In this document: piece by piece, positions 35,462 to 43,614 of the stretch
How positions within the stretch are numbered: the stretch's first letter is position 1
How the letters are laid out: the number at the start of each line of letters is the position of its first letter
Source of the DNA: Acidimicrobiia bacterium
GTDB taxonomy: Bacteria; Actinomycetota; Acidimicrobiia; Spongiisociales; ZC4RG35
Direction: 5' to 3'
Assembly: GCA_965215185.1 (NCBI GenBank)
Contig: OZ244034.1
Location: 2,304,001-2,368,000, forward strand
Length of the DNA stretch: 64,000 bases
The notes under the pieces: generated by a model
What the model was told of the DNA's origin: nothing
Seen by the model: only the letters and a program-made list of their open reading frames with translations
The model's database searches: none
Position numbers and translations under genes: made by a program

Positions 35462-35696
35462 CTGAGGTTCCCCCGGTTTGGCGGACTGTTTTGGTTGGTG
35501 TTCATGCCACCAGTTGTTGTTGGTGGCGGTAGTTTACGGGGCTTTGTTGGTTGTTGTAGGAGTGTCTCCTTTCGGGGTTGTACCAGCCTTCGATGTACTC
35601 GAAGATTGCCAGGCCCTGCTGGTGGCGGGTCTCCCATTTCTGGCGGTCCAGCAGTTCTGTTTGGAGGGTGGCGAAGAACGATTCCACGACGGCGTT
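35462..35696 (-). mobile_element. IS3 3' fragment with terminal IR
   Basis: NAVVESFFATLQTELL..IFEYIEGWYNPERRHS; end TGAGGTTCCCCCGGTTTGGCGGA. Confidence 0.8.
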
Positions 35697-36355
35697 GACG
35701 CCCCTATAGTCAAATTTTGGGTTTAGGGGGTGGTGTGTTGTCGGGTTTTGTGGTCGGTCATGACGCGTTGGTAGACCTCGCGGGCGAGGAAGCGTTTCAG
35801 GCAGCGGATGATGTCCTTTTTTGAGAGGCCCTGGGCGGTGCGACGAGCGACGTAGTCGATGGTGGGCTAGTGGAATCGCATTCGTACTATCGCTACTCGG
35901 TACAGCGCCGCGTTGGCTTGACGGTGCCCGCCTCTGTATAGACGATGCCTGTTGGTCTGTGCGGAGGAAGCCGGAATCGGACACGTGCCACAGAGTTTGG
36001 CGAATGCGGCCTCGGAACGGATCCGTTCGGGGTTGTCACCGAACACGATGAGAAGCTCCGCCGCGGAATCGGCTCCGATGCCAAAGCCGTCTCGCAGTGT
36101 TGGGGAGGCTTGGGCGGTGAGGTCGTCGAGCACGGTGTCGTGGGAGCGGATCTCGGTGTCGAGGTGGAGCCAGCGGCGTGCTAGTGCTCTTGAGTGAGTA
36201 CTTGGCGGAGGCTGTGGGGGTGTTGATCACCGAGACCCGAAAGCGTGCGCAACGGTTGATGAGCGCTTTGTTAGAAAGCCCATCGAGGGATTCGCGCAGC
36301 TCGGCCGGGGTGTTGACGATGATTGCCTTGAGGGTGATGATCGCCGAGGTTCGGC
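35697..36355 (-). mobile_element. IS110 element F (subfamily 2), C-terminal half with stops plus right end
   Basis: GIGADSAA..GDNPERIRSEAAFA..PASS..RHRL..RQANAAL; right end TTTGACTATAGGGGCGTC. Confidence 0.85.
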
Positions 36356-36790
36356 GAGCCTGTATACATGTCTGTGTGAGGTGGGTTCTTTATTGCTGTG
36401 GCTGGTGTGAGAGCCGGTCCGAGAGGAGAGTGTTTTGATGCCTATTGAACATGATGTGACGGAGGCGGCTGTGGTGGCTGCTGGTGTGGTGTCTGATGAG
36501 GTGGTGGAGGCGGTGGTTTCGGACGCTGCTGCTGGTGGTGTGGACCTTCTGGGTCCTGATGGGGTGTTGGCTGAGTTGACGAAGCGGATTCTGGAACGTG
36601 CTTTGGCTGAGGAGATGACCGATCATCTGGGCTATGAGTCCGGTGATCCGATGGGTCATGGTACGGGTAAGAACCGTAACGGGTCCTCTCCCAAACAGGT
36701 GCTGACTAAAGATCGGCGCGGTGGATTTGGACATTCCACGGGACCGTAACGCTACGTTCGAACCGAGGATCGTTCCCAAGGGCGCCCGGC
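36356..36790 (+). mobile_element. IS256-family left end and transposase N-terminal fragment
   Basis: End GAGCCTGTATACATGTCTGTGTGA; LLGPDGVLAELTKRILERALAEEMTDHLGY..RNG; PRDRNATFEP. Confidence 0.85.
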
Positions 36791-37230
36791 GCCGTAGCTG
36801 CCGGTGCCTTCCACCCCAACCCGCACCACACGACCCTGGGATCTCAACCAGCCGCCCAGTTCCTCAAAGCCGGTTGCATCGGCCGGGAACGGAGCGGTTC
36901 CCAGGACTCGACCGGCGGTGTCCACTACCGCCGCGACATGACAATCGCGATGGGTGTCCACCCCGCCAAACACCTCAACCAGGCTCTCTTTTTGTGACAT
37001 GAATGTCTTCTTCTTCCTTGGATAGACTCGCGGGTATCACCGGACCGGAAGCGGTGGACAGAACACTCATGATGGTGTGGAGAAGCAAGGCTCCTATAAG
37101 GTCACATCCGCTCCCGGGTCGGGGAGTGTCCCCAGGCCGAAAGCAGGCCGACAGATCATGATAAGGCACAAACGGCCAGTTTGTCAAGGGGTCAGACCCG
37201 CCCCGACCAGGGACCCCACCATTATCGAGT
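36786..37230 (-). mobile_element. IS110 element D (subfamily 2): left end plus recombinase N-terminal fragment (start 37000)
   Basis: GGVDTHRD, VEGTGSYGAG. Confidence 0.85.
37045..37215 (-). ncRNA. Putative bridge RNA of IS110 D (bounds approximate)
   Basis: Non-coding left end with scaffold shared with 41154-41290; guide-like segments match flank and element ends. Confidence 0.65.
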
Positions 37231-37587
37231 GTTTTGCAAATCGCTTTTCGGGGGTGGGGGTTGTTTGAGCTTTTTGGTGGGGTGGTTTGGGGTTGGGGCG
37301 AGTTCTGGGGGTTTAGTGGGGGGTTTTCCAGTAGCCGGTAGAGGTGGCGGGCGATGTACCGTTTGAGGCAGCGTCGTGCTTCGCGGGTGGTTTTTCCTTG
37401 GCTGATGCGTTTGGCTATGTAGGCCTGGGTTTTGGGACAGTGGCGGGTGCGGGTGATGGCCATGTTGTGGAGCGCGCGGTTGAGTTGGCGGTCACCGCGT
37501 CGGTTGAGTCGGTGGCGGGTGCGTTGCCCTGAGGAGGCTTGGAGGGGTGCTACGCCGGCTAGCCGAGCGAAGGCGGCTTCGTTACGG

Positions 37588-37766
37588 CAGCGGCAGCGTC
37601 CGAAACCACCGCCTCCACCACCTCATCAGACACCACACCAGCAGCCACCACAGCCGCCTCCGTCACATCATGTTCAACAGGCATCACAACACTCTCCTTT
37701 CGGGCCGGCTCTCACACCAGCCACAGCAATAGAGAACCCACCTCACACAGACATGTATACAGGCTC
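37588..37766 (-). mobile_element. Second IS256 left end, inverted relative to 36356-36533
   Basis: About 180-bp near-identical inverted copy. Confidence 0.9.
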
Positions 37767-38249
37767 GGTTTGAGCGCCTCGGCGGACGGTTTCCAGTACC
37801 CGCAGGGCTTCTCGGTCTCCCCGAGCGCGGGGAGCCGAAAGCCGGGAGCGTCCCAGCGCCTGGCGGGCGGCTCGTCGAGCGTCCAACGCGTCGGTTTTGG
37901 CGCCGTCGCGGGTCGGGTGGGGATGGCCGAACTCTATTACCCATTCACCAGCCTCAGAAAGGTAGTCGGTGACTCCTGCTCCGTAGCTACCGGTTCCTTC
38001 CACCACCCACGCTCGTTCCGCGGATGTGTGCTGGTTTGTCCACTCCAACAGTTGAGCATATCCCATGCTGGTTGTCCCAAAGCGCGCAGATGTCAACTCT
38101 CCGGTGGTGGCAGTGTCCACTACCGAAGCGGTGATCCAGTCACGGTCAGGGCCTATTCCTATCGTATGTTTTACCATCTCGGCTAGCATCGTATTTGTTC
38201 CTCTTTTCTGGTGTTACCGGTTAGAGCTGGCGTACCCCCGAGGAGCGGC

Positions 38250-38450
38250 AACCGTTACGGCAGACCTGTGATGGGTCACACCCATTTGGGTGGACAGGCT
38301 TCTGATCAGGCCAGCAACGAAGCACCCAGGCGGGCGCAGCGAAGGGTGTCGGACACATCGATTTGAAGACACGGACCGGTCGGTAAAGACAGAAACGGTC
38401 AGGGTTTTGGAGGGTCACGACACCACCGCTGCGCCTAGCCTGGCAGACTC
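38250..38450 (-). ncRNA. Putative bridge RNA of IS110 A (bounds approximate)
   Basis: Scaffold homologous to 39780-39960, with differences concentrated in two short guide segments. Confidence 0.7.
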
Positions 38451-38462
38451 TGAGAGCACCCC

Positions 38463-39698
38463 CTACATACTCACAGGGTTTGGTGCGGTGAGCCATTGGT
38501 GGTATCGGGTGGCGAGTTGGTGGTTGTGGTAGAGGCCTCGTTCGAGTTGTGAGAGGCGGTTTGGGTGGGCGTGGACGGCTGTGGCGGCCTGAGCGAGAGT
38601 GGTCCGGGTTTTTTGGCGTAAACAGCGTAGATCGGCGCCGTTGGGTGTTGAGGGTGGGTCGGTCAACAGTCGGTAGACCTGGCGGGCGATGTGGCGTTTC
38701 AGACAGCGGATGATCTCTCGGCGGGTTTTGCCTTCCGCCCGGCGTTTTTCGACGTATTCGATGGTGGTCTGGTCGCAGCGCATCCGAGTGGTGGCGATCC
38801 GCCACAAAGCGTTGTTGGCTTGGCGGTCGCCACCGCGGTTGAGGCGATGGCGCACAGGTCCTGAGGATGCCTGGACGGGACTGGCGCCGCACAACGCCGC
38901 GAAGGAAGCTTCCGATCTCATGCGTTCGGGGTTGTCACCAGCTGCGACCAATAAGGCGGCGGCGGTGTCCGGGCCGATCCCTGTGGTGGCCAACAGCGCC
39001 GGGTTGGCCCGGGCGCAGAGATCTTTGATCCGGGTGTCGAGTTCTCCGATCTCTGCGGTGAGGGTCTGGTATCTGCGGGCCAAGAGACGGAGGACATGTT
39101 TGGCGTAGGTGATGGTGGTGTCACCATCACCCGGACGAAAACCGGCACAGACCTTCCCGCGGGCTTTGGGGGAGAGCCCCCGAAGTTGGTGTTTGACCTG
39201 GTCGGGAGCAGTGACCACCAGGGCGTGCAGCTGGTTGATGGCCTGGGTACGGGCCTTGATCGCCGAACGGTGGGCCACTGTCAGCATCCGTATTGCTTCT
39301 ACTGGTCCGTTCCCGCTTTTGGGCAACCCGGTGGCCTGCCCGTTCAAAGCAGCCCGCGCCGCTGCCCGGGCGTCTGTGACATCGGTCTTGCCGAAGCGGC
39401 GGCGTAACTGGCGGTTGGGCCGGTTCACTTCCACCACCTCAACACCAATGCTCATAAGGTGGCGGGTCAGGCCGGCGCCGTAGCTGCCGGTGCCCTCCAC
39501 CCCGACCCGCACAACACGACCCAGGGACCCCAACCAGTTGTTCAACCGTTCATAACCGGCGACATCGGCCCGAAACGGCGCCGAGCCAAGGACCCGACCG
39601 GTGGCATCCACCACCGCCGCGACATGGGTATCACGGTGGGTGTCGACCCCACCAAACACAATCCGATCATCCTCTGACATATGCATCTTCTCCTTCAA
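38463..39698 (-). CDS. IS110 recombinase of element C (subfamily 2) with C-terminal XRE-like HTH
   Basis: DEDD: GVDTH, VEGTGSYG, KTDVTDA; Tnp ASSG; tail LRCLRQK..TLAQAA..LSQLERG. Confidence 0.92.
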   Translation of the reverse strand: MKEKMHMSEDDRIVFGGVDTHRDTHVAAVVDATGRVLGSAPFRADVAGYERLNNWLGSLGRVVRVGVEGTGSYGAGLTRHLMSIGVEVVEVNRPNRQLRRRFGKTDVTDARAAARAALNGQATGLPKSGNGPVEAIRMLTVAHRSAIKARTQAINQLHALVVTAPDQVKHQLRGLSPKARGKVCAGFRPGDGDTTITYAKHVLRLLARRYQTLTAEIGELDTRIKDLCARANPALLATTGIGPDTAAALLVAAGDNPERMRSEASFAALCGASPVQASSGPVRHRLNRGGDRQANNALWRIATTRMRCDQTTIEYVEKRRAEGKTRREIIRCLKRHIARQVYRLLTDPPSTPNGADLRCLRQKTRTTLAQAATAVHAHPNRLSQLERGLYHNHQLATRYHQWLTAPNPVSM

Positions 39699-39753
39699 AG
39701 GTAGAATTCGTTTCTGTTCTCTCTGACCCGAAAAAACGGTGGACAGACCACTC

Positions 39754-41153
39754 TGTGAGTATTGGGGGGGCCTTGTAGAGGCTGCCAGGATTGGCGTCAG
39801 CGGTGGTGTCGTGACCCGAGACCACTCTGACCTTTGTGTCTTTGCCGTGATATGTCCGACACCGCCGCGACGCCCCTGGGCGTTCCGTTGCTGGCCTGAT
39901 CAGAAGCTTGTCCACCCATGGGGTGTGACTCATCACAGTCCTGCCGTCACGGTTTGCGCCTTGTGAGGCACTAGCCCAGTTCGCACAAGAAAGAGAAGGT
40001 TTCTTATGTTGGCCACAATGGTAGAGCATGTGATCGGGATCGATCCTGATCGTGACCGGGTCACCGCCGCGGTAGTAGACACTTCCACCACCGGAGAACA
40101 AGCGACTGCGGTGTTCGGAACCACCCGGCTGGGATATGACCGGTTGTTGAAATGGGCAGACCAGCACACTCAGACGGCTGAGCGGGTGTGGTCGGTGGAA
40201 GGCTCGGGCAGTTACGGAGCAGGCGTGACCACCTATCTCGCTGCCCGAGGTGAACTAGTGGTGGAGTTCAACGATCCCACCCCTACCCGCGACGGCGCCA
40301 AAACCGACGCACTGGACGCTCGGCGGGCCGCTCGCCAGGTGCTGGGCCGTCCTTGGCCATCTGTCCCGCGGGCTAGGGGAGACCGCGAAGCCTTGCGAGT
40401 GTTGGAGACCACCCGCCAGGGCGCCCAAGGGGCCAGAGTATCGGCCATCAACCAGCTAAAAGCCCTGGTAGTGACCGCGCCAGTCGATCTTCGGGACCAA
40501 CTCCGAGGTCTGAGCACAACTGCTCTGGTGGCCAAGTGCGCGGCGTTTCGAATCCGACCCGCCTCCGTCAACGAACTGACCGCCACCAAACAAGCCCTAC
40601 GTTCTACAGCCAGACGCATCCGCAACCTCAACAATGAAATAGCAGAGCTGAAAACGCCCATCGCCGAAATGGTCACAGCCGCAGCTCCGCAACTGCTCGA
40701 CCAATTCGGGATTGGTCCGGTCACCGCCGCCCAAGTGTTCATCGCCTGGTCCCACCCAGGCCGATGCCGCAACGAGGCCGCGTTCGCTCGCCTGGCCGGC
40801 GTAGCACCCCTCCAAGCCTCCTCTGGACAACAAACCCGCCACCGGCTAAGCCGCTACGGCGACCGCCAACTCAACCGCGCCCTCCACACCATCGCTATCA
40901 CCCGCGCTCGGGACTGCCCCAAAACCCGGGCCTACATCGCCAAACGCATCAGCCAAGGAAAAACCACCCGAGAAGCCCGCCGCTGCCTCAAACGGTACAT
41001 CGCCCGCCACCTCTACCGACTCCTACAAAACCCGCCCCCAACCCCGGCCGAACCAGCCCCACCGTTCCACTCGGAAACGCCGCAACACCCCCACAAGCTC
41101 AAACATCCTCAAATCCCCGCCAAAAGCCTCGATTTGGAGAACATAGAAGCATC
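39754..41153 (+). mobile_element. IS110 element B (subfamily 1), apparently complete
   Basis: Left end TGTGAGTA shared with element A; right end CATAGAAGCATC; TC present at both junctions. Confidence 0.85.
39780..39960 (+). ncRNA. Putative bridge RNA of IS110 B (bounds approximate)
   Basis: Segments in LTG-RTG-LDG-RDG order match the left flank (AGACCACTC), right flank (TCAC), right end (AGAAGC) and left end (CTGTGA). Confidence 0.75.
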
Positions 41154-41292
41154 ACATGGCAAGAGCAAGGCTCCTATCAGGTCACAGCCGCCCTGTCGGG
41201 AGAGCACCGCCCCCAGGCCGGAAGCAGGCCGACAGATCACCACAAAGGCACAACAGCCAGGTCGGAGTCGAGTCAGACCCGCCCCGGCCTAG
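40006..41292 (+). CDS. IS110 recombinase of element B (ORF reads past the element right end)
   Basis: GIDPD, VEGSGSYG, AKTDALDA, ASSG, RQLNRALH. Confidence 0.92.
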   Translation: MLATMVEHVIGIDPDRDRVTAAVVDTSTTGEQATAVFGTTRLGYDRLLKWADQHTQTAERVWSVEGSGSYGAGVTTYLAARGELVVEFNDPTPTRDGAKTDALDARRAARQVLGRPWPSVPRARGDREALRVLETTRQGAQGARVSAINQLKALVVTAPVDLRDQLRGLSTTALVAKCAAFRIRPASVNELTATKQALRSTARRIRNLNNEIAELKTPIAEMVTAAAPQLLDQFGIGPVTAAQVFIAWSHPGRCRNEAAFARLAGVAPLQASSGQQTRHRLSRYGDRQLNRALHTIAITRARDCPKTRAYIAKRISQGKTTREARRCLKRYIARHLYRLLQNPPPTPAEPAPPFHSETPQHPHKLKHPQIPAKSLDLENIEASHGKSKAPIRSQPPCRESTAPRPEAGRQITTKAQQPGRSRVRPAPA

Positions 41293-41312
41293 GGGCACCT
41301 ATAAGTATGAGT
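41154..41312 (-). ncRNA. Left end / putative bridge RNA of IS110 C, separated from its ORF by element B
   Basis: Joining 39737-39753 to 41154 onward restores a sequence collinear with 37052-37215. Confidence 0.7.
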
Positions 41313-41845
41313 GGTTGGAGTCGACGTGGACGGGCGTAAACATGTGCTGGGGGTATGGCTGGGCGACGGCGGTGAAGGCGCCAAATACTGGTTGTCGGTA
41401 CTTACCGAGATACGCAACCGAGGCCTCGAAGACGCGCTGATCGTGTGCTGTGACGGCCTGAAAGGGCTCCCGGACGCGATCGAGGCGACATGGCCCCAGG
41501 CGCTGGTGCAGACCTGTGTGATCCACCTGCTGCGAGCCTCTATGCGGCTCTGCAGTTGGAAAGACCGAAAAACCATTGTGGCGGGCTTGCGACGCGTTTA
41601 CACCGCGGTAAACGCCGAAGCCGCTGTTGAGGCGTTGGACGAGCTCGAGGAACAATGGGGAAATCACTATCCCGGCGTTATACGAATATGGCGCCAGGCG
41701 TGGGAAGAGTTCACCCCGTTCCTGCGGTTCCCGCCAGAGCTTCGCAAGGTCGTGTACACAACCAACGTCGTCGAAAGCGTCCACTATCAACTACGGAAAG
41801 TCACCAAAACCAGGGGGCATTTCCCCACCGACCAATCCGCCCTCG
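41313..41845 (+). mobile_element. IS256 transposase internal fragment
   Basis: GRKHVLGVW, RNRG..CDGLKGL, QTCVIHLLR, YTTNVVES. Confidence 0.9.
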
Positions 41846-41953
41846 CACTTGGATCGCGCCTCGCCCAACAGCATCCAAATGCTGGGGCCGAGCGAGTTGA
41901 TATCGGTGGCCTTGAAAGTGATCCACGGGTGGGACTTCAGATAGGAGCGCACA
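41846..41953 (-). pseudogene. Possible Fic-family protein N-terminal fragment
   Basis: SHPWITF..IWMLLGEARSKCE recalled from Fic protein N-termini. Confidence 0.45.
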
Positions 41954-42069
41954 AGTGCCGCTCTACTATCGGTATATTGTTTTGACCATTCTGATGTCCA
42001 ACTTGTTGTCCAGTAAAGAGACAGTGCAGTCAAGAGGTTTGCGGGAGTTCCCCCGCGTTCTAGTCGGGG

Positions 42070-43614
42070 CTAAGCCTCCGTCTGGAACTTGGCTTTCTCT
42101 GCGTCTCGGAGCCATCTTTTCATTACTTTGCCGGAGTCGTTGCGGACTAGGGCATCTACTACTTCGAAGTGTTTGGGGACTTTGAATTTGCCGAGGTTGG
42201 CGCGGCAGTGGGCGGTTAGTTCTTCTTCGGTGACGGTCATGCCGGGGAGGGCCACCACGAAGGCTTTGGGTACTTCGTCCCAACGCTCATCGGGCACTCC
42301 CACCACTGCTGTCTCGCTAACTGCCGGGTGTCTGGCCAGCACCCGCTCAATTTCGGCGCTTGCCACGTTTTCTCCGCCGCTTTTGATCATGTCCTTCTTG
42401 CGGTCCACAAACCACATATAGCCCTCGGCGTCGATGCGGCAGATGTCGCCTGAGTGGAACCATCCGTCGCGGAAGGCGGCGGCGGTCTCGTCAGGATCGT
42501 TCCAGTAACCCGGCGACACTTTGGGTCCACGGGCGACTAACTCTCCGGGCTCCCCGGGCGGCACCGGTCGGCCTTCGTCGTCCACTATCCGAAGATCTAT
42601 GTTGGCAAAGGGCCTTCCCACAGATCCTATTTTCTCGGGAGGGGGGTTGGCCTCCAGGTAGGCGGCGCCGTTGGTGAGTTCGGTCATCCCATACGCCTCT
42701 GACAACCGCACGTGCGGCAGGGTCTCCTGGAAACGGCGATAGACCGGCGCCGGCAGCCCTCCGAAGATGATCCACTTCAGAGAAGACAGGTCGTACTGAT
42801 GGCGGTCTTCCATCCTCATGATGTCGTGGATGATCTGAGCGGCCAGCACCCCTCCCGCCACCTTCTCCTTCGCCACCAGCTTCACGATCTCCCGGCCCGC
42901 ATAGCTGTGGACGATCACCAGCGTCGCTCCTATGTAAAGAGCAGTGAGTCCTGGGACATCCAGTCCGCTGACGTGAAATAGCGGCGCCGAAAGCATGATC
43001 CGGTCACTAGGAACCAGTTCCATTTCCAGAATCTGACCCACCTGATTCCAGATCACGTTTCCGTGGGTGGTGATCACCCCTTTGGGATGGCTGGTGGTAC
43101 CCGACGTGTAAAGAATCCGGGCCAGATCATCCAGCCCCATCTGGGCGTCAGGCACCTCTGCCCCGGCGGCGGCAGCCATCAATTCCTCGTAAACGTGCCA
43201 GCCGGCTGGGCCTTGGCCGGCATGGACGATGACGTGCCGGATGTCTGGAGAAGAAGCGAGCGTCTCTTGGGCTTTGTCGTGGAACCGTTGATCGACCACC
43301 AGTCCCACCGCTCCGGAATGGTTGAGGATGTAGGTCAACTCCCGAGGGTGAAGGCGCCAGTTGAGGGGGATAAAGGCCGCTCCGATCCGGTTGATGGCCA
43401 GGATCTCGATCAGGTAGTGATAGGAGTTGTCGGCCAGGATGGCGATGATGTCTCCCCTCCCATACCCCAGGTCCAAGAGCGCCTGGGCCATTTCGCTGAC
43501 CGCCGCGTCCAGTTGCCGGTAGGTAAGCCGGACCTCTCCATCAACCACGGCCTCCTTGTCTCCGAAGCGGTGCTTGTTGCGTTCCAGCAGGCGGCTCAGA
43601 TTGGCGGTGGGCAT
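42070..43614 (-). CDS. Acyl-CoA synthetase
   Basis: YTSGTTSHPKG, EAYGMTE, HSGD, SGKVMK; paralog of 14040-15605. Confidence 0.95.
   Translation of the reverse strand: MPTANLSRLLERNKHRFGDKEAVVDGEVRLTYRQLDAAVSEMAQALLDLGYGRGDIIAILADNSYHYLIEILAINRIGAAFIPLNWRLHPRELTYILNHSGAVGLVVDQRFHDKAQETLASSPDIRHVIVHAGQGPAGWHVYEELMAAAAGAEVPDAQMGLDDLARILYTSGTTSHPKGVITTHGNVIWNQVGQILEMELVPSDRIMLSAPLFHVSGLDVPGLTALYIGATLVIVHSYAGREIVKLVAKEKVAGGVLAAQIIHDIMRMEDRHQYDLSSLKWIIFGGLPAPVYRRFQETLPHVRLSEAYGMTELTNGAAYLEANPPPEKIGSVGRPFANIDLRIVDDEGRPVPPGEPGELVARGPKVSPGYWNDPDETAAAFRDGWFHSGDICRIDAEGYMWFVDRKKDMIKSGGENVASAEIERVLARHPAVSETAVVGVPDERWDEVPKAFVVALPGMTVTEEELTAHCRANLGKFKVPKHFEVVDALVRNDSGKVMKRWLRDAEKAKFQTEA

Follow-up and report, generated by a model that had tools for sequence, protein, structure and literature searches.

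A nest of IS110-type elements with probable bridge-RNA-guided insertions in an Acidimicrobiia genome

Introduction

The closest described relatives of the elements dealt with here are IS621 and IS622 (ISCro4). For IS621 the rule by which the left and right guides of a bridge RNA pair with DNA has been published (PMC11208160); the second base of its core, T, is almost invariant and the first is less conserved (PMC11208158), AT, GT and TT cores work (PMC11208160, PMC11208158), and the top strands are cut just after the core and, once they have been exchanged, base pairing links the right guide to the incoming donor core and a handshake base to donor position 7 (PMC11208158). Some members of the related IS1111 group target terminal repeats of the Tn21 family and integron attC sites, as titles cited in PMC11208160 indicate. 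Here, a stretch of 64,000 nucleotides of an Acidimicrobiia bacterium is described (assembly GCA_965215185.1, contig OZ244034.1, positions 2,304,001–2,368,000; termed the window, to whose first letter all positions refer unless given as genome positions), in which a heap of insertion sequences holds four alleles, A to D, of an RNA gene; an earlier note, made from the sequence alone, had taken these for bridge RNAs with guides reprogrammed on two conserved scaffolds. Very probably the region is a graveyard of two IS110-group subfamilies, S1 (alleles A and B) and S2 (alleles C and D), stacked in a broken IS256-type element, with bridge-RNA-guided insertions at a core of the form NC. The host genome is a single contig of 3.12 Mb with 60.7% G+C, and its nearest named relatives are metagenome-assembled Acidimicrobiia.

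Bridge RNAs on two conserved scaffolds

Both scaffolds proposed in the earlier note are present as it had claimed (positions in Table 1): GTGACCC-(10 nt)-TGACC...GTGTCTT-(variable)-GAT.TGTCCGACACC in alleles A and B, and GGTCTGAC-(12 nt)-TGG...TGTGCCTT-(variable)-GATCTGTCGGCC in alleles C and D. According to the consensus structures, an RNA of about 185 nt lies between the left end of the element and the start codon of the recombinase and forms two stem-loops, both of which contain an internal loop. A covariance model of the eight in-genome S1 copies (R1) matches A with 155.4 bits (E 1e-41) and B with 209.8 bits (E 6e-57), and the corresponding model from the in-genome S2 copies (R2) matches C with an E value of 1.4e-38; the target-loop stem-loops of A and B fold with z-scores of -6.4 and -4.0, respectively, none of 200 shuffles folding as well. 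Because of these model scores and folds, the occurrence of the scaffolds cannot be put down to chance. Across 22 distinct S1 RNAs from several genomes, 95.2% of the cells are paired and 20 of 52 pairs show a compensatory change; the observed value was reached by none of 500 shuffles, and slid controls gave 36–48% of cells paired.

The RNAs are not confined to this genome. S1-type RNAs are found by R1 in 24 of 101 related genomes (this one and one unpublished genome included) and in 11 of the 16 other genomes of the genus; S2-type RNAs are found by R2 in 11 of 16 genomes of the genus. A pattern search of the present genome for target loops gave nine of S1 type, namely the eight S1 copies and one divergent RNA of a third type, and 12 of S2 type. 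This third type of bridge RNA, at genome positions 228711–228944 (L016), is matched weakly by R1 (E 1.6e-7), and its left guide, TCGATTTGAC, corresponds to the GATTTGAC conserved in the right ends of S1 and S2.

The alleles have their peculiarities. The target-loop stem of A is indeed longer by about 20 nt, as had been noticed from the sequence, with 21 extra bases in the apical hairpin (alignment columns 44–64). That these bases stem from a duplication of the hairpin together with the right guide was considered and dropped: Tandem Repeats Finder, run on 38300–38450, gave no repeat at a score of 30 or more, and the likeness by eye is weak. Allele C is short of one base of the right target guide when compared with its twin of 99.3% identity, and the part of D at its tabulated position amounts to no more than the 5′ two-thirds of a bridge RNA, whose remainder (right donor guide and leader) lies at 39699–39753, beyond the 1400 bp of the inserted S1 element S1b.

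Guides and the DNA that they match

The left target guide (eight bases plus two of the core) is identical to the DNA sequence left of the insertion, and the right target guide, which has five bases and an invariant GAT after it, is complementary to the right-hand DNA. Direct comparison bears out that target guides differ within each pair of alleles, with identities that are about random: 4/10 bases of the left guide and 0/5 of the right one for A and B, 4/12 and 2/5 for C and D. The donor segments, for which conservation had also been claimed, are invariant within a subfamily (ATCAGAAGC and ATCACAG in S1, ATAGGAGC and TGAGTG in S2). Expressed as mean pairwise difference, the left and right target guides stand at 0.60 and 0.61, the rest of the RNA at 0.23, the left and right donor guides at 0.01 and 0.09, and GAT at 0.03.

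The check that the earlier note had asked for, whether guides covary with flanks across homologues, came out in its favour. Every copy with a recognizable left end was taken, from this genome and from loci fetched from the genus, which gave 75 rows, reduced to 50 distinct guide–flank pairs with 37 distinct left guides. A left guide matches its own flank at a mean of 6.12 of the eight non-core bases, versus 2.65 for the flanks of unrelated copies, and a mean as high as that was seen in none of 5000 permutations. For the right target, the 29 rows having a paired right end were scored, among them several right flanks that were picked up by the pattern, belong to nested neighbours and score 0; positions 1 to 5 match in 23, 23, 21, 19 and 14 of these rows (about 0.2–0.33 of rows being expected) and position 6 in 2, so that the working right guide comprises five bases. 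As to single alleles, both B and D match their own left flank at 9/10 positions, the tenth being a G.T wobble in D; the deleted right target of D, when read from the second IS256 copy, is ACCACG, and ACCACA is predicted. The twin of B, which is located in unique DNA, matches at 9/10 positions on the left and 5/6 on the right.

By inspection, the donor loops track the element ends, again in agreement with the earlier note, and there is hardly any variation in their guide columns. For S1, the right end ...AGAAGCATC is matched by AGAAGC and the left end CTGTGAGT by ACTCA..CACAG; for S2, the corresponding matches are those of ATAGGAGC with ...ATAGGAGCATC and of ATGAGTG with CACTCAT. The ends matched by this second loop are thus ...AGRAGCA-TC on the right and TGTGAGT (S1) or ACTCAT (S2) on the left. 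Guide variability and guide–flank covariation together uphold the central claim, IS110-group bridge RNAs whose target loops have been retargeted naturally on conserved scaffolds. The additional expectation that the alleles might offer a view of how guides are rewritten did not hold up: the guides of close relatives differ by point substitutions, and there is no sign of a special rewriting mechanism.

A probable two-base core

The junction dinucleotides are those that had been read before (CC for A, TC for B, AC for C, CC for D). In every copy the base before the left end is C, left-junction cores being TC, AC, CC or GC, and distinct right ends stop at ...AGRAGCA-TC in 51 of 52 cases, the exception being a truncated right end within another nest. 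In 30 of 33 in-register pairs (the others are one wobble and two mismatches), the first core base of the target is the same as the penultimate base of the left guide, so the former is read, not ignored. In the 3′ strand of the target loop, the GA of the invariant GAT is complementary to TC, and the T is complementary to the A before it. From the four junctions it had been suggested earlier that, in contrast to IS621 with its CT core, only a terminal C is fixed; the data are better read as a two-base core NC with an invariant C in second place and a first base that depends on the left guide, TC being the core of the element itself. The rule is the same as that of IS621 with other bases (NC with an own TC, versus NT with an own CT), and it is not relaxed.

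The left junction carries the core of the target and the right junction the TC of the element; no pair is reversed. Such one-sided inheritance of the core would be expected of a product determined by the exchange of top strands, and it is in line with a preprint whose abstract argues for single-strand, copy-type movement of IS621 (10.64898/2026.08.31.748434). In the extracts of PMC11208160 and PMC11208158, no discussion of one-sided core inheritance in nature was found, and a search for non-CT cores in the texts of a 2025 preprint and a 2026 review gave nothing beyond CT and GT. Covariation of the handshake kind, between the bases after the right donor guide and the target core plus positions 6–7, was looked for by eye; it misses most copies with a TC core, B included, and no claim is based on it. 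The pattern fits the AC-core group, with TCC or TTC after G or A at target position 7.

Recombinases

The recombinases of S1 and S2 are 47.7% identical. Those of the elements S1b and S2#2 match PF01548 (DEDD RuvC-like, N-terminal) over nearly the full length, with E values of 7.2e-13 and 1.3e-24, respectively, and both match PF02371 (C-terminal Tnp) with an E value of about 1e-18. In phmmer comparisons the S1b recombinase matches the ISCro4 and IS621 transposase structures with E values of 7e-11 and 2e-9, in two separate stretches; in the alignment the GID, E and KTDAxDA motifs and a Ser-Gly line up, the serine of which may be the equivalent of S241 of IS621. Neither S1 nor S2 has terminal inverted repeats or a target duplication, and there is a short core at both junctions.

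Among the four carriers of alleles, S1b, which carries B, is the only whole element with an intact recombinase; its gene is also the sole intact S1 recombinase gene of the genome, that of its twin (98.6%) being frameshifted. The recombinases of A and C are truncated and the element of D is split by S1b. Only allele B belongs to an element that could be active. The proposal of the earlier note to use a "C recombinase" in assays overlooks that allele C is accompanied by no more than some 72 codons of the gene; the intact S2 recombinase of 411 aa goes with the split allele D, not with C. The S1 recombinase reading frame (40006–41292) lacks a stop codon within the element and runs on past the right end, and the stop codon of the S2 recombinase is the TGA within the GATTTGAC of the S2 right end; an insertion of the A class therefore swaps the last residues of the S2 protein.

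In the genome as a whole, 49 recombinase segments are found by tblastn. Three apparently intact recombinases, 35% identical to that of S1b, belong to a further IS110-family type (genome positions 984078–985088, 1647211–1648221 and 2652789–2653799). Contigs of three sequencing runs skip 115 bases in the S1b recombinase gene (40175–40291), a deletion variant in other samples.

Architecture and proposed history of the nest

The nest was mapped by blastn of the region against reference copies elsewhere in the same genome. Positions 36355–42110 are a stack of insertion sequences with a broken IS256-type element outermost; inside it lies S2#2, an IS110-type element which in turn holds S1b and S1a, and S1a holds S2a (Table 1). 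Two deletions are recognizable in the nest. The first extends from an inverted IS256 copy into S1a, and the second took the rest of S2a, the tips of the right ends of S1a and S2#2, and the 258 bp of IS256 that are absent between the two parts of the outer element.

The four alleles would correspond to four guided insertions. Each element would supply a DEDD/Tnp recombinase and, upstream in its left end, the two-loop bridge RNA of about 185 nt. By analogy to IS621, an element would leave as a circle, and the joint of right and left end would be the donor site; the joint may also rebuild a promoter since, by eye, TTGACA in the S2 right end comes to stand 17 bases upstream of CATACT in the left end, and the S1 joint has TTGGAG followed by TGT-GAGTAT. 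The bridge RNA would then pair with target and donor, and the recombinase would exchange strands just after the two-base core, as in IS621. D would have landed in the gene for the IS256 transposase. The bridge RNA gene of D itself would have received B in its donor loop, the right end of D's element would have taken up A, and C would have entered the right end of A's element; later on, the two deletions and an IS256 insertion would have removed most of the recombinase genes of A and C.

The heap as a whole covers about 35500–42110 of the window and is flanked by a gene for an SLH-domain protein and an acyl-CoA-synthetase-like gene. Just left of the nest, the C-terminus of an integrase core (rve_2) is encoded in the open reading frame 35502–35984, and 35753–36377 on the minus strand holds a fragment of a third, more distant IS110-type recombinase that is 44–56% identical to those of S1 and S2.

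Table 1. Positions of the bridge RNA alleles, their guides and the nested elements in the window
Feature	Position	Strand	Details
Allele A, bridge RNA	38232–38438	-	left target guide 38402–38411, right target guide 38360–38364, GAT 38357–38359
Allele A, donor guides	left 38298–38306; right 38266–38276	-	from alignment of S1 copies
Allele B, bridge RNA	39791–39972	+	left target guide 39818–39827, right target guide 39844–39848, GAT 39849–39851
Allele B, donor guides	left 39899–39907; right 39928–39938	+	
Allele C, bridge RNA	37040–37222	-	left target guide 37179–37190, right target guide 37158–37162, GAT 37155–37157
Allele C, donor guides	left 37090–37097; right 37064–37070	-	
Allele D, bridge RNA	41154–41298	-	left target guide 41260–41271, right target guide 41239–41243, GAT 41236–41238
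Allele D, left donor guide	41170–41177	-	
IS256-type element, 5′ part (N-terminus of a Mutator-family transposase), outermost host	36355–36793	+	94.8% identity to reference positions 13–451 of the second genomic IS256 copy (blastn); Pfam PF00872
S2a, truncated S2-type IS110 element: left end, allele C, first ~72 recombinase codons	36786–37230	-	start codon at 37000; target core AC at 37231–37232; 99.3% identity (419 aligned bases) to the S2 copy at genome 1.097 Mb; join with IS256 at ~36790 in a short stretch common to both (by eye)
S1a, 3′ part: recombinase C-terminus and right end	37233–37594	-	85.4% identity to S1b reference positions 1007–1308; right end interrupted by the S2a insertion after GATTTGCAAAAC
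Second IS256-type copy, 5′ end, within the S1a recombinase gene, then truncated by deletion	37588–37770	-	97.8% identity to IS256 reference positions 10–193, inverted
S1a, 5′ part: left end, allele A, recombinase codons 1–141	37770–38475	-	target core CC at 38476–38477; Pfam PF01548 on the open reading frame 37743–38189
S2#2, main part: right end cut by S1a, 411-aa recombinase, leader, 3′ rest of RNA D	38476–39753	-	recombinase 38463–39698 intact, its stop codon within the S1a left end; 79.6% identity to the S2 copy at genome 2.397 Mb, reference positions 141–1453
S1b, complete S1-type IS110 element of 1400 bp	39754–41153	+	target core TC at 39752–39753, own TC at 41152–41153; ends the same in the 98.6% twin at genome 1.666 Mb
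S2#2, left end with allele D (target loop and left donor guide only)	41154–41298	-	88% identity to S2 reference positions 1–127; target core CC at 41299–41300
IS256-type element, 3′ part	41299–42110 (3′ limit approximate)	+	41311–41843 aligns with IS256 reference positions 710–1243 (blastn); PF00872 profile positions 187–364

Landing sites in sibling elements

Of 19 left flanks captured by pattern in the genome, eight fall within reference sequence of S1, S2 or IS256, and 14 have further occurrences in the genome; when allele C, which the pattern missed, is added, the former count becomes 9 of 20. The ideal 15-mer of A has three genome sites within one mismatch, all of them unoccupied S2 right ends, and the best genome sites for C are right ends also; the A class sits 23 bases and the C class 11 bases from the tip of sibling right ends. 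The donor loop of S2 bridge RNA genes harbours S1 copies with B-like left guides at two places in the present genome and, judged from the flanks of two loci (L042 and L022), also in two further genomes. The S1 recombinase gene is hit at a single codon position by S2 copies with the guide AAACTCAACC, and the S2 recombinase gene, likewise at a single codon position, by one S1 class. For two insertions into genes (copies at 0.979 and 0.373 Mb of the genome), it was checked by eye that excision of the element plus one core restores the reading frame. The S1 copy at genome positions 978200–981163 (L006, L065; about 0.981 Mb) is bordered on either side by one and the same stretch of eight bases, AATTTGAC, with a remnant of an S1-like right end to its left, and is not reconcilable with a single guided insertion.

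Landing in siblings may reflect selection, or no more than the persistence of such insertions as do no harm where spare DNA is scarce. It is possible, and put forward here with more doubt than confidence, that guides have been retargeted onto conserved working parts of sibling elements in five classes, namely those of A, C and B and the two at fixed codons of the recombinase gene of the other subfamily, which, if selected, would amount to RNA-guided homing of one mobile element into another. In such homing, the A class would aim inside the S2 right end at a distance that leaves the terminal donor bases and the -35 box of the victim intact, and the C class would aim 11 bases inside the right ends of both S1 and S2. 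Were this true, siblings would offer safe landing sites in a small genome, the lodger would ride along when its host element moves, the B class would disable a competitor, and the one-sided inheritance of the core would be a natural record of top-strand transfer deciding the product. A literature search for IS110 elements nested in IS110 elements gave no relevant report among the 12 of 123 papers listed, although such reports may exist.

A putative empty site and a hint of expression

Three DNA-type sequencing runs and the RNA library X20 were compared with the region. In two of the former (X5 and X6), contigs join 39751 to 41152, exactly 1400 bases being skipped and two bases shared, as at an empty site for B; the sequence of this empty site does not occur in the present assembly, even with six mismatches allowed in 48 bases. 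One RNA library yielded a contig of 209 nt (depth 4) that covers an A-type bridge RNA (38288–38452 plus 39920–39960), starts about 23 bases inside the left end and shows no differences over its first 164 bases; DNA contigs in two runs have the same joined form. In X20, three contigs cover 7 of 30 bins, the uncovered parts being uninformative.

Alternative explanations

A number of observations speak against the favoured reading. The donor stem-loop of B, taken alone, folds no better than shuffles (z +0.78), and an Rfam 15 search of 35500–42500 with E values up to 1 gave zero matches. A matches its own flank at 7/10 positions, as does C (by eye; the near-identical twin of C reaches 9/10), and 3 of the 50 pairs match at 3/8 bases or fewer; the right target of B agrees with its guide at 2/6 positions, and B may therefore be a half-matched insertion. 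Further, 11 of the 50 pairs fit better when the flank is moved by one base (L045, L057, L061, L071, L077 and the genome copies at 1.095, 1.098, 2.397, 3.012 and 3.102 Mb are among them); there, the match of the left guide stops one base before the invariant C and the target seems to hold one extra base between the half-sites, and the causes that have been considered for this are a pairing bulge, an additional C within the left end, and wobble pairing (U.G) of the last guide base. With copies from one genus being related, the permutation test overstates independence. At the empty site, the shorter side of the joints has just 24–28 bases, and the joints could come from a related strain, a related S2 copy, other organisms or repeats. 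No circle junction is among the four joints listed from the assembled contigs, and the 209-nt contig is only a weak hint at expression of the bridge RNA, as such libraries can hold DNA.

The version of the earlier note, a single fixed C without a two-base core, a truly relaxed rule, and S1 and S2 as orthogonal systems, is unlikely, although C is the only base common to both junctions in every copy, all four bases occur as first core base of the target, and the one-base shifts could mean a loose geometry around the core. On the element side, the base before the C is not free but T at all distinct right ends save one; the target loop keeps its invariant GAT to pair with A-TC, the base on the target side tracks the left guide, and in IS621 there is likewise one nearly fixed and one flexible core base (PMC11208158). 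For orthogonality, it can be said that donor guides and element ends differ between S1 and S2, and that R1 picks up S2 RNAs only weakly (E values from 1e-5 to 3e-9). Rearrangement did take place here, as the two deletions and the inverted IS256 fragment show, some flanks are common to duplicated regions, for example those of the copies at 3.012 and 3.102 Mb, and the S1 copy at 0.981 Mb with the same eight bases on both sides is not explained by simple insertion; even so, homologous or illegitimate recombination among insertion-sequence copies as the main source of the junctions, the guide–flank matches being carried by duplicated nests, is quite improbable in view of 37 distinct left guides that match their own, different flanks, of reading frames restored by removal of an element with one core, and of an empty site for B in other samples at which precisely the element is skipped. 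It is hardly credible that the left-end RNA is a leader or small RNA that controls expression of the recombinase only and has no part in the choice of DNA, as was reportedly once proposed for ISPpu9. Such a role would suit an RNA directly upstream of the recombinase start codon, and the pairing of RNA and DNA is deduced here from sequence; however, it gives no reason why the bases of one loop equal the flanking host DNA and why the second loop matches both ends of the element.

Comparison with known systems

Bridge RNAs and the natural diversity of their targets are already established (PMC11208160, PMC11187229); the central claim is therefore a mechanism known since 2024, in a new lineage. 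Added interest lies in elements that mostly target each other, at positions specified by their guides, and in a core that ends in C. Landing in siblings and different cores on left and right bear on how IS110 elements move, by cutting or copying and by one strand or two, as treated in the abstract of the preprint named above (10.64898/2026.08.31.748434). One genus offers at least 37 natural left-guide variants on two scaffolds, in which the changed positions (8 + 2 on the left, 5 on the right) can be set against those never touched. If such a recombinase works in a heterologous host, it would reach NC-core sites that are closed to CT- and GT-core enzymes.

IS110, IS116 and IS900 are actinobacterial members of the IS110 family; by their usual description, they share with S1 and S2 the family, the phylum, and the lack of terminal inverted repeats and of a target duplication. 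The IS1111 group with its seekRNA (IS4321/IS5075, IS1111-attC) likewise comprises RNA-guided DEDD transposases, each close group of which has its own site (PMC11187229). In that group, the non-coding region is downstream of the transposase gene and there are long subterminal inverted repeats, whereas the elements described here are of IS110 type: in all copies the RNA is upstream, and the right end extends beyond the reading frame by about 25 bases at most, with no guide RNA of the IS1111 type in it.

The closest likeness is to IS621 and IS622 of Enterobacteria, as far as they are described in the extracts of PMC11208160 and PMC11208158. In both cases there is a recombinase with a DEDD RuvC-like and a Tnp domain, and the long left end encodes an RNA whose target loop precedes its donor loop; the left guide repeats the left target's top strand together with the core, a short right guide is complementary, and one core base is fixed and the other flexible. 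Another common trait is pairing between the neighbours of the core-binding bases and the top strand of the other DNA partner: the invariant T of GAT, which faces the A before the element's TC, is handshake-like; the right donor guide of S1 pairs discontiguously (11 bases of RNA versus 8 of DNA), and S1 has, by eye, a short subterminal repeat ATA...TAT around a donor of 14 bases. The differences are no less clear. The proteins are distant, the host here belongs to an uncultured lineage of Acidimicrobiia, the RNAs of this nest have no Rfam match, and S2 has a compact donor loop with contiguous donor guides of 7–8 bases. Most targets of the present elements are other insertion sequences, not REP elements, and the CT core at both ends that marks the IS621-like subgroup is found in neither S1 nor S2: the core of IS621 is CT with a fixed T, that of the Acidimicrobiia elements TC with a fixed C.

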